DNA from: Mayamaea pseudoterrestris
Lineage: Eukaryota
Direction: 5' to 3'
DNA: 64,000 nucleotides
NCBI GenBank assembly: GCA_027923505.1
Contig: BROI01000014.1
Location: forward strand, 372,001-436,000
Shown here: piece by piece, positions 62,015-64,000 of the stretch
Layout: the number at the start of each line of letters is the position of its first letter
Numbering within the stretch: the stretch's first letter is position 1
The notes under the pieces: model-generated
What the model was told of the DNA's origin: nothing
What the model saw: only the letters and a program-made list of their open reading frames with translations
Database searches by the model: none
Made by a program: the position numbers and the translations under genes

Positions 62015-62496
62015 CTAAATCTCAATTTGCGTGCTTGTCGCTTTCGCTTTCCCGGACGACGACGGTGGCACGGGAGATCGTGGTATGCCAAGAGGCGGCG
62101 CCGGAGGAGGACTTGCTGCAGCTGCTCCGTTGAGTGAGTTTGGACGATGGTTGCCATTGTTCAAAATGGTTTGCTTGTCAATGCCAGCGTCGTCGGCTAG
62201 TTCGCTGACGTGCTGCTCCAGTTCGTCAATCCGTTTGCCAAGCTCATCCATTCTTCCGTTAATCTTGCTTCCAAGTTGTTGGAATCGATCTTGCTGTTGT
62301 ATTTGCGAAACCAGAAGGAATGCTTGTGAGAGGCAAGGTCGAATGTCGGAGGGGCAACTTTTGATGCAAAAAGGTTACGCACCATTTCTTGGAGGAGCGA
62401 ATCGACAAAGGCTGTCAAATCATTGGCATTCTCAATAGGCCTAGCAGCTGCAGTAGGAGAAGACTGCGAAGCTTCTTGGGTGGGAGACTGCGCCAT
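62015..62496 (-). CDS. HSBP1: Heat shock factor-binding protein 1, 2 exons (62496-62383, 62293-62015)
   Basis: DLTAFVDSLLQEM/QDRFQQLGSKINGRMDELGKRIDELE across intron 62294-62382. Confidence 0.9.
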
Positions 62497-62770: not shown

Positions 62771-63520
62771 ATGGCGGACGACGACGGCAACTACAACTAC
62801 TTTAACGAGGGCAATGTCAGCAATTTGTGTACAAGCTGGGCGCCTATTTTGGGCATGACTGGAATTGTAGCGTCCGTGGCATTGGCGAGTGAGTAAATCT
62901 TGAGGAACAGCCAAGTGGCAGCAATAGAATGCTACTGCTATTGCCGAGACACAAGCGTCTATACTTGTAGTCGGATGTACTGTTAATCTAACAACTCTTT
63001 TTGTCATTGAACAGATCTCGGAGGCGCCTACGGAACAGCCAAGGCTGGCCAAGGCCTCATGGCCATGGGGATTCGATCGCCGGAACTGCTCATGAAGAAT
63101 ATTATTCCAGTCGTCATGGCTGGAGTCTTGGGTATTTACGGTCTCATTGTCGCTGTCATTCTCAATGGAAAATTCAGTCCTCCGACGCAAGGAACTGGCT
63201 ACGCGACATACTCGCAATATAATGGATTTTCGCACTTGTCGGCTGGTCTTTGCTGCGGACTATGCTCGTTGGCGAGTGGCATTGCCATTGGAATTGCAGC
63301 AGATGCTGGAACAAGAGCGGTCGGAGCGCAGAGTGCCATGGCAGCGTCGTGGAAAAAGATGGGATTCACTGGAGATGCTGGAGGTCAAGTGACGAGCAGT
63401 GGAGATGCGCTCTTTGTCGGCACGATTTTGATTCAAGTCTTTGCGTCCAACTTGGGCTTGTATGGACTTATTACGTCTCTCATTTTGTCACAATCCGACT
63501 ACCAATGCCAACCAGAATAA
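62771..63520 (+). CDS. V-type ATPase c-type proteolipid, atypical (no TM4 Glu), 2 exons (62771-62888, 63015-63520), 207 aa
   Basis: N/LGGAYGTAKAG, RSPELLMKNIIPVVMAGVLGIYGLIVAVIL, HLSAGLCCGLCSLASGIAIG, FVGTILIQVFASNLGLYGLI. Confidence 0.9.
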
Positions 63521-63656: not shown

Positions 63657-64000
63657 TCAATCATCGTCCTCAACGTCAAAGCGCTTCAAGTACTTTCGTA
63701 GCTCAATCATGGCCTTGCTTCGTTTCGCAAGTGCATTCGAAAATCCCTTGTTGTGGTAATGCAGAGATCCATAGTATCGATGCTGCCGCAATACATCCGT
63801 CCGCGTCACCATGCCAACCAGCTGCTTGGTACCTTCCAAGACGACTGGAATACAGCCAACGTCAGTTTCAAAGAGAAAGGACTCTACCTCGGCCATGGTT
63901 TTTGTAGCTTCCACGGTTTGAACATTGTTCAACATCCACGCCTTGACTGGAGTTCCTAGTTTGCGTTCGTCGGTTACCTTTTGGTCCACAGGGATTTCTA
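63657..64000 (-). CDS. Partial CDS: C-terminal CBS-domain region (runs off the window end)
   Basis: PVKAWM..TMAEVESFLFETDVGCIPVV..LVGMVTRTDVLR is a CBS motif. Frame open to the window edge. Confidence 0.8.
   Translation of the reverse strand, partial: EIPVDQKVTDERKLGTPVKAWMLNNVQTVEATKTMAEVESFLFETDVGCIPVVLEGTKQLVGMVTRTDVLRQHRYYGSLHYHNKGFSNALAKRSKAMIELRKYLKRFDVEDDD

Follow-up and report, generated by a model that had tools for sequence, protein, structure and literature searches.

A gene of the diatom Mayamaea pseudoterrestris encodes a vacuolar-type ATPase (V-ATPase) proteolipid that has the sequence and fold of ring subunit c and lacks the proton-carrying glutamate (Glu) of such subunits. 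The gene lies within a 64,000-nucleotide (nt) stretch of contig BROI01000014.1 (GenBank assembly GCA_027923505.1, positions 372,001 to 436,000, forward strand), which we call the window and to which all coordinates refer. In place of the Glu in the fourth transmembrane helix (TM4) the protein has Ser, and the same loss was found in relatives that are held under strong purifying selection. A preliminary description of this DNA had pointed out the missing Glu; we add to it a loop insert at 63326-63403, a second Glu-less paralogue family, and evidence from yeast on Glu-less ring subunits, the last taken from excerpts of PMC7541076. As a tentative reading, to which we attach somewhat less than an even chance, we propose that the window protein, itself blind to protons, joins ordinary c subunits in a hybrid Vo c-ring and would there lower the number of H+ moved per ATP.

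Loss of the proton-carrying glutamate

Translation of 63017-63517 gives ...GDALFVGTILIQVFASNLGLYGLITSLILSQSDYQCQPE, within which TM4 reads LFVGTILIQVFASNLGLYG. The positions that matter in this helix are the following:

63398-63490, + strand: TM4, residues 168-198; the helix that bears the proton-binding Glu in ordinary c subunits
63422-63424, + strand: Thr176; Met in canonical c
63434-63436, + strand: Gln180, position -4 from the lost Glu; Leu in canonical c
63446-63448, + strand: Ser184, codon TCC; opposite the TM4 Glu of solved c subunits
63449-63451, + strand: Asn185, position +1; Ala in canonical c

When the protein is aligned by HMMER with c and c' chains of solved V-ATPases, the Ser of 'lfvgtiliqvfaSnlglyg' stands opposite the TM4 Glu, at a position that we take to be that of yeast Vma3 E137. 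The Glu of c and c' proteolipids (Vma3 E137, Vma11 E145) is absent from the window protein. The preliminary description had read TCC in place of the Glu, with Gln one helical turn before it and Asn after it; sequence and alignment agree with that reading. The canonical TM4 that it quoted is replaced here by that of canonical diatom c. Nor does another acid take over at the proton site. TM2 reads NIIPVVMAGVLGIYGLIVAVIL and has no acidic residue, and no acid was found in the membrane core of any helix by sequence, column alignment, or the AlphaFold2 (AF2) model, in which D136 and D170, at the cytoplasmic ends of TM3 and TM4, are the only acids within the modelled helices.

The surroundings of the lost Glu are fixed in two Glu-less families, type 1 and type 2, which are defined below. 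Position -4 is Gln in 100% of 61 type-1 and 100% of 40 type-2 sequences and Leu in 100% of 38 canonical sequences, and position +1 is Asn in 100% of both Glu-less sets and Ala in 100% of the canonical one. The Thr176 column holds Thr in 97% of type 1 and Met in 97% of canonical and 95% of type-2 sequences. Judged by their spacing, T176, Q180, and S184 would form a polar ladder (i, i+4, i+8) on one face of TM4.

At the Glu position, 45 coding sequences have GGT (25 sequences), GGG (2), GGA (1), TCC (9), TCA (6), or TCT (2), and GAA or GAG in 0/45. Since Gly is one step from the Glu codons and Ser (TCN) at least two from Gly, Gly is probably older than Ser at this position. The preliminary description had held that the missing Glu was not a single base-call error, and this stands: the 120 listed relatives described below also lack it, and the loss is far beyond chance or base-call error.

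An intact, spliced gene

The coding sequence is divided between two exons:

62771-62888, + strand: exon 1, with the ATG, a further 39 codons, and base 1 of the codon for Asn40
62889-63014, + strand: intron of 126 nt, GTGAGT...AACAG, with GT..AG ends, phase 1
63015-63520, + strand: exon 2, with the remainder of TM1, then TM2, TM3, the loop insert, and TM4; stop codon TAA at 63518-63520

By its translation, exon 1 codes for the N-terminal tail, on the luminal side, and for the first half of TM1. It is 100% identical to residues 1-39 of P0293 (GKY97365.1, Mayamaea pseudoterrestris), and the translation of exon 2 is 100% identical to residues 41-207; exon 1, Asn, and exon 2 together reproduce the 207 amino acids (aa) of P0293 at 100%, and we took this protein as the full-length product of the window gene. 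The full protein matches Pfam PF00137 at 1.6e-24 in two stretches, corresponding to two ATP-synt_C hairpins, and the exon 2 translation alone matches it at 5.7e-23, also in two stretches.

The claim that the gene is intact and spliced was borne out by assembled contigs. The joint 62888->63015, with GT..AG ends, is present in one contig each from runs X3 and X4, and the X3 contig extends to 63484, spanning the Ser codon, with no difference listed there. Contigs from X1 and X2 keep the intron. Runs X3 and X4 come from one study, and the kind of runs X1-X4 is unrecorded, with none of them listed as RNA; we used splice joints and not depth. Six differences among the sequencing runs fall in exon 2, every one of them third-position and synonymous. 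In one X1 contig, 111 other letters stand in place of 108 intron bases at 62895-63004; this diverged intron looks like a second intron allele, and the six synonymous differences point the same way. We conclude that the window gene is an intact, spliced, c-type proteolipid gene whose spliced form is present in contigs of two runs, which we take as a sign of expression. A tblastn search of the 64-kb window found no second proteolipid gene.

A Glu-less family under purifying selection

We defined type 1 by the TM4 motif Q-[VI]-F-[AG]-[SG]-N, the insert motif SWKKMGF, and Leu in TM2. The window protein reads QVFASN in TM4, SWKKMGF in the insert, and AGVLGIYG in TM2 and is therefore type 1. A word-indexed similarity search returned 6289 proteins at E<=1e-5, and the best 120 of these, at 80-99% identity, were listed. 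Within this set of closest relatives, Q[VI]F[AG][SG]N occurs in 120/120, with Ser at the Glu position in 67 and Gly in 53; SWKKMGF occurs in 119/120, the canonical F[AS]E in 0/120, and the named relatives are all diatoms, both pennate and centric. The type-1 genera are Fistulifera, Seminavis, Epithemia, Attheya, Odontella, Cylindrotheca, Craspedostauros, and Cyclophora, and several orthologues are MMETSP transcripts. Type 1 reaches the Parmales, the algae most closely related to diatoms, with a member in Tetraparma.

Selection was estimated as the ratio of nonsynonymous to synonymous divergence (dN/dS, Nei-Gojobori) in the window sequence and the 44 of 80 metagenome loci with one uninterrupted exon-2 match (L001-L045 without L025). 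Loci L046-L080 were excluded as interrupted, partial, or 54-76% identical, the last being probably other paralogues. Of 990 pairs, 387 had a finite dS, and among these the median dN/dS was 0.06 and the maximum 0.14; the 18 pairs with dS<1 gave 0.08. Mean pS was 0.75 versus a mean pN of 0.13 for the exon-2 sequences. Type 1 is held under strong purifying selection, and the conserved Glu-less clade envisaged in the preliminary description does exist. A decaying or mis-assembled copy without function would explain the loss of the key residue and nothing else. We rejected this explanation, together with sequencing error, on the grounds of the intact frame, the spliced contigs, the dN/dS of 0.06, the agreement of 120/120 listed relatives, and the synonymous-only alleles, and we give it next to no weight.

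Identity and fold

The best solved matches of the window protein by HMMER are subunits c (2.2e-33) and c' (1.3e-28), followed at a distance by c'' (7e-16) and Enterococcus NtpK (8e-4). Identity is 40-45% to solved c subunits and 56-59% to canonical diatom c. An AF2 model built from a 139-row alignment (mean predicted local distance difference test score [pLDDT], 80.4) has helices at 24-58, 70-91, 107-154, and 168-198, the four-helix, two-hairpin architecture of c and c'. Foldseek returned c subunits as the top matches, and the model superimposes on yeast, mammalian, and citrus c subunits with template-modelling scores (TMt) of 0.88-0.96 and root mean square deviations of 1.2-3.5 A. In both sequence and fold, c and c' are thus the nearest of the rotor subunits, in keeping with the earlier assignment to the c/c' type. 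Identity with c'' (Vma16) was rejected: TM2 has no acid, the N-terminal 23 residues contain no membrane helix, and the c'' match is far weaker. The Protein Atlas gave nothing beyond generic V-ATPase proteolipid clusters. As judged from its sequence, the protein is by descent a c-subunit paralogue and, by its TM4, stands outside the proton-carrying proteolipids.

Two further features distinguish its ends and loops:

63326-63403, + strand: TM3-TM4 loop insert, about 25 residues (protein 144-169), AQSAMAASWKKMGFTGDAGGQVTSSG
62813-62821, + strand: N15-V-S17 sequon of the N-terminal tail; of the 61 type-1 sequences, 92% keep the Asn and 90% the Ser

The insert is a gap in 89% of the 38 canonical sequences, and most of its positions are 97-100% identical in the 61 type-1 sequences, with the pattern AQSAMAASWKKMGFTGDxGGQ.... 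AF2 models its first half as a cytoplasmic extension of the TM3 helix (107-154), followed by a loop of low pLDDT at 155-167. Because the TM3 helix continues through the first half of the insert in the model, the insert would project from the cytoplasmic face of the ring. The membrane topology of c subunits is well established. The sequon makes N15 a candidate for N-glycosylation; if it were glycosylated, the tail would be luminal. C20 and C204, near the two chain ends, are Cys in 100% of the 61 type-1 sequences, and many type-2 and canonical stramenopile c sequences have the pair as well; both cysteines may be luminal, which with the sequon hints at glycosylation and possibly a disulfide bond. 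Type 1 shows almost no variation in TM2 and TM4, the outer helices, or in the TM1-TM2 loop (GAYGTAKAG), and the same holds for canonical c.

It is conceivable that such a protein has left the V-ATPase and serves in an oligomer of its own or in another membrane complex, as a scaffold or a pore. The defining carboxylate is gone, the invariant 25-residue insert offers a new interaction surface, and the branches of the family are longer than those of the near-frozen canonical diatom c. We nevertheless regard a role outside the V-ATPase as distinctly unlikely, given that the fold is unchanged and that the four helices and the TM1-TM2 loop stay close to canonical c at 56-59% identity overall. Roles of proteolipids independent of the V-ATPase have been proposed elsewhere and are disputed.

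A second Glu-less family and the age of the loss

An exhaustive search of representatives, followed by a search with the Aulacoseira protein P0128 as the query, uncovered a second Glu-less family. We defined this type 2 by AGVNGIYG in TM2 (Leu to Asn), the same TM4 motif with Gly at the Glu position, and a basic insert. In 113 of the 120 matches listed for P0128, TM2 AGVNGIYG is combined with TM4 QVF[AGS]GN and a variable insert rich in Lys, Arg, and Gly; of the remaining 7, three are truncated or have gaps, three are tandem fusions of canonical c, and one is a type-1 protein. Examples of type 2 are P0128, P0347, P0375, P0401, P0370, and P0384. The family occurs in the diatoms Aulacoseira, Ditylum, Cyclophora, Fistulifera, Eucampia, Astrosyne, Odontella, and Phaeodactylum, with two genes in Phaeodactylum tricornutum (XP_002184835.1 and XP_002176957.1), and in the Parmales Triparma and 'scaly parma'.

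Canonical Glu-bearing c is near-frozen in diatoms, at 96-100% identity, and was found in Nitzschia, Amphora, Skeletonema, Fragilariopsis, Fragilaria, Epithemia, Aulacoseira, Rhizosolenia, and Chaetoceros. Canonical c is accompanied by type 1 in Epithemia clementina and by type 2 in Aulacoseira, and types 1 and 2 occur together in Fistulifera and Cyclophora.

Unrooted trees, built by a 'quick' method and without a c'' outgroup, were made from 67 rows and then from 59 rows with trait columns removed; the second omits eight long-branch rows (P0204, P0267, P0258, P0135, P0227, P0188, P0196, and P0245). Types 1 and 2, each with its Parmales members, lie on one side of a branch whose support by the Shimodaira-Hasegawa approximate likelihood ratio test (SH-aLRT) is 82 with 67 rows and 84 with 59 rows, not starred. 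The window protein clusters with 14 type-1 rows at SH-aLRT values of 93 and 91 in the two trees. Type-1 and type-2 branches are far longer than those of canonical diatom c. Diatoms and Parmales share both families, which on this distribution dates the duplication and the Glu loss to before the diatom-Parmales split.

Glu-less forms also turned up farther afield. In the haptophyte Prymnesium parvum, one reads LIQGTASALGMYG, with Gln at -4 and Ser at the Glu position; P0147 (Prymnesium parvum), P0289 in the same cluster, and P0145 in a separate cluster carry the Glu-less motif LIQGT[AG]SALGMYG. Grouping of the haptophyte form with the stramenopile families was not rejected by the approximately unbiased test (p-AU 0.59, 59-row tree). 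A protein of the nematode Acrobeloides nanus (P0258, UniRef) is likewise Glu-less, with AGVNAIYG in TM2 and LIQAFASVLGLYG in TM4, including LIQAFASV; in the 67-row tree it falls with animal c subunits on a very long branch, and it may be a case of convergence, a decaying copy, or contamination. The recurrence of Gln at -4 and Ser at 0 in the haptophyte and nematode forms suggests a constrained solution.

Such constancy of polar residues could also mean that the site has acquired another ligand. Under this explanation, an amide/hydroxyl pocket formed by Thr176, Gln180, Ser/Gly184, and Asn185 in type 1, and additionally by Asn78 of TM2 in type 2, would bind a cargo that is neither H+ nor Na+, perhaps an anion or a small neutral solute (for example, silicic acid or bicarbonate), which the rotor would carry or sense. 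The invariance of the polar residues and their i, i+4, i+8 spacing would fit a pocket of this kind. In our own alignment, the TM2 Asn of type 2 lies 4 residues after the Met and 3 before the Tyr that match yeast M59 and Y66, and these two residues contact the Glu in the structure described in excerpts of PMC7541076. The known rotary ATPases, however, carry H+ or Na+ only, and each needs a carboxylate to do so (PMC7793690, in excerpt); we consider a re-purposed pocket highly improbable. If it were real, a rotary ring that moves a second cargo or contains its own sensor would exist in diatoms, in Parmales, and perhaps in haptophytes.

A proposed proton-blind subunit in the Vo ring

In the hybrid ring that we propose, the type-1 protein would still occupy a place in the Vo c-ring beside ordinary c, but as a blank that carries no proton. 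With a small residue in place of the Glu and the amides of Gln and Asn around it, the site would be a permanently neutral polar patch that mimics the protonated form of Glu; this patch could form hydrogen bonds with the stator arginines of subunit a while the blank passes. Thr176 would extend this patch into the i, i+4, i+8 ladder in type 1, and the TM2 Asn would add to it in type 2. Every blank would cut the number of protons pumped per ATP, and with fewer protons per ATP the pump could therefore hold a steeper pH gradient. The invariant cytoplasmic extension of TM3 would give the blank a fixed place or a partner, for which subunit d and the N-terminal domain of subunit a are two examples.

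The outer helices and the TM1-TM2 loop vary as little as they do in canonical c, which fits a subunit that is packed into a ring and comes into contact with subunit a. A model of the complex in which type 1 was placed between two canonical diatom c subunits gave ring-like packing with a score of 0.75 versus 0.00 for the best control; the mark for this score is attained by 51/78 solved complexes and by 2/108 mismatched pairs. At least 93% of the contacts agree between runs, the partners have a pLDDT of at least 77, and residues 185-187 contact the neighbouring subunit. The hybrid ring of Acetobacterium woodii combines nine one-site c subunits with one V-type c that has a single site (PMC9171764, in excerpt), and it follows from this rotor that rings with a missing site can work.

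Several considerations weigh on the other side. Because c-rings have already been solved, the success of the complex model may reflect likeness alone. In yeast, mutation of c' E145 or c'' E108 abolished proton pumping completely, and the authors, in the excerpted text, took a Glu-free gap of three or four helices to be too long even for ATP-driven rotation (PMC7541076). By this analogy, a wholly Glu-less four-helix subunit makes just such a gap. In addition, the long TM3 extension, as modelled, rises at the site of subunit d and could equally prevent normal assembly.

The loss of all pumping in the yeast c' E145 and c'' E108 mutants would suit a rotor lock or brake, as would the calculation in the same excerpts that the longer '0-glu' gap is rate-limiting (PMC7541076). 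Here the Glu-less subunit would enter the c-ring and stop it at the stator, leaving a proton-tight, non-pumping Vo that could regulate pump number, form a sealed reserve pool, or act as a structural or fusion platform. The conserved ring-compatible surfaces and the ring-like packing of the model, with the caveat about likeness given above, are consistent with a lock, and the invariant cytoplasmic insert could recruit a partner to the locked Vo. Yet a plain block needs no particular residues, and both families keep Gln at -4 and Asn at +1 in 100% of sequences, with Gln at -4 and Ser at 0 recurring in other lineages. Two families kept since before the diatom-Parmales split also represent much conservation for an inhibitor. 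Moreover, the substitutions made in the yeast c'/c'' study reportedly differed from the Gln/Ser/Asn polar triad. We therefore judge a lock to be unlikely, if deserving of serious weight, and retain the proton-blind, turning blank as our working proposal. The preliminary description had raised a lowered H+/ATP ratio, a brake, and some different function of the Q/S/N site, and all three are alternatives here as well.

Relation to known rotor subunits

Subunit c (Vma3, ATP6V0C, VHA-c) and fungal c' (Vma11) share with the window protein the four helices, the two PF00137 hairpins, a TMt of up to 0.96, and conserved sequence in the TM1-TM2 loop, TM2, and the GLYG end of TM4. Unlike them, the window protein has no TM4 Glu (Ser in its place, Gly in many relatives), has Gln, Asn, and Thr for Leu, Ala, and Met, and carries the 25-residue insert that lengthens TM3 as well as a longer N-terminal tail with an N-x-S sequon. 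Subunit c'' (Vma16, ATP6V0B) is likewise a ring paralogue whose TM4-equivalent helix has no Glu and which makes the spacing of proton sites uneven (PMC7541076, in excerpt); c'', however, has an essential Glu on its TM2-equivalent helix and an extra N-terminal helix, and the window protein has neither. The yeast c' E145 and c'' E108 mutants resemble it as eukaryotic V-ATPase ring subunits deprived of their carboxylate. They differ in being dead pumps (PMC7541076, in excerpt), whereas the natural type-1 proteins are ancient, selected, and equipped with polar residues and an insert.

In the structure study of the A. woodii F/V-hybrid c1 subunit, the position of the missing carboxylate is reportedly Gln. 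Like the window protein, c1 (PDB 4BEM) is a double-hairpin subunit in which a hairpin without a site stands among subunits that bear sites (PMC9171764, in excerpt), and the fold match is weak (4bem_J, TMq 0.57). Unlike it, c1 is bacterial, F-type, and Na+-coupled and keeps one Na+ site while having lost the other; in the window protein both hairpins are without a carboxylate and thus blind. The resemblance to c1 may indicate a possible working mode, not family membership. By analogy, its nearest counterpart in mode of action would be the ion-blind hairpin found in hybrid or duplicated rotor subunits, with the difference that the whole four-helix subunit is blind.

Other proteolipids and neighbouring genes

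The searches brought up further unusual proteolipids. P0140, P0278, P0162, P0282, and P0168 form a clade with a long acidic, Gly-rich TM3-TM4 insert, a Trp-rich TM1-TM2 loop (SNWGSAWGTWKSG), and a retained Glu (FSEALALYG). P0204 and P0267 are two more long-branch Glu-less forms (SFAGA..LYGF). P0380, P0388, P0394, P0127, and others are tandem fusions of two canonical c subunits, 300-330 aa long, from nematodes, dinoflagellates, and plants, and are probably merged models of adjacent genes. Many matches in the representative search are truncated or mis-spliced models that seem Glu-less merely from missing TM4.

Two open frames adjoin the window gene, without an evident link to the proteolipid:

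62018-62374, - strand: upstream, HSBP1-like protein, PF06825 at 1.5e-12
63660-63998, - strand: downstream, CBS-domain protein, PF00571 at 8e-9, running off the window end

Implications for diatoms and rotary motors

The V-ATPase acidifies the silica deposition vesicle of diatoms. It also acidifies the space around the diatom plastid (preprint 10.1101/2022.05.26.493626, in excerpt). The preliminary description had suggested that the Glu-less subunit might belong to such compartments, the silica deposition vesicle or plastid-associated membranes; this link is without direct support, and a Glu-less form is also present in the haptophyte Prymnesium parvum. The occurrence of both families in the silicified Parmales suggests a connection with silica; a silica-specific origin is weakened by the haptophyte and nematode Glu-less forms.

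In the literature we found no account of Glu-less V-ATPase proteolipids in diatoms or other eukaryotes, with a coverage that may miss relevant diatom V-ATPase work, and B7GCN4, B7FR01, XP_002184835, XP_002176957, and GKY97365 are named nowhere in what was found. A 2026 preprint on the evolution of rotary ATPases and a paper on E. huxleyi ESTs do not bear on the matter. A natural hybrid c-ring that uses fully proton-blind subunits as a gear shift would, if true, be new for eukaryotes; we put its chance a little below even. To our knowledge, the V-ATPase field, working mainly on yeast, takes it that every ring subunit must bear its glutamate, since a pump that has lost one stops. Two Glu-less ring-type families have nevertheless persisted in a major group of primary producers since before the diatom-Parmales divergence, under strong selection.

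If rings turn with blanks in them, they would represent a natural eukaryotic change of the H+/ATP gear, with steeper pH gradients as the gain. The alternatives are deliberately locked Vo complexes or a proteolipid fold with a new job. The genes are small and present in transformable diatoms, such as Phaeodactylum tricornutum with its type-2 pair, so that the question is directly testable, and any of the three outcomes would be informative for the mechanics of rotary motors and for diatom cell biology.

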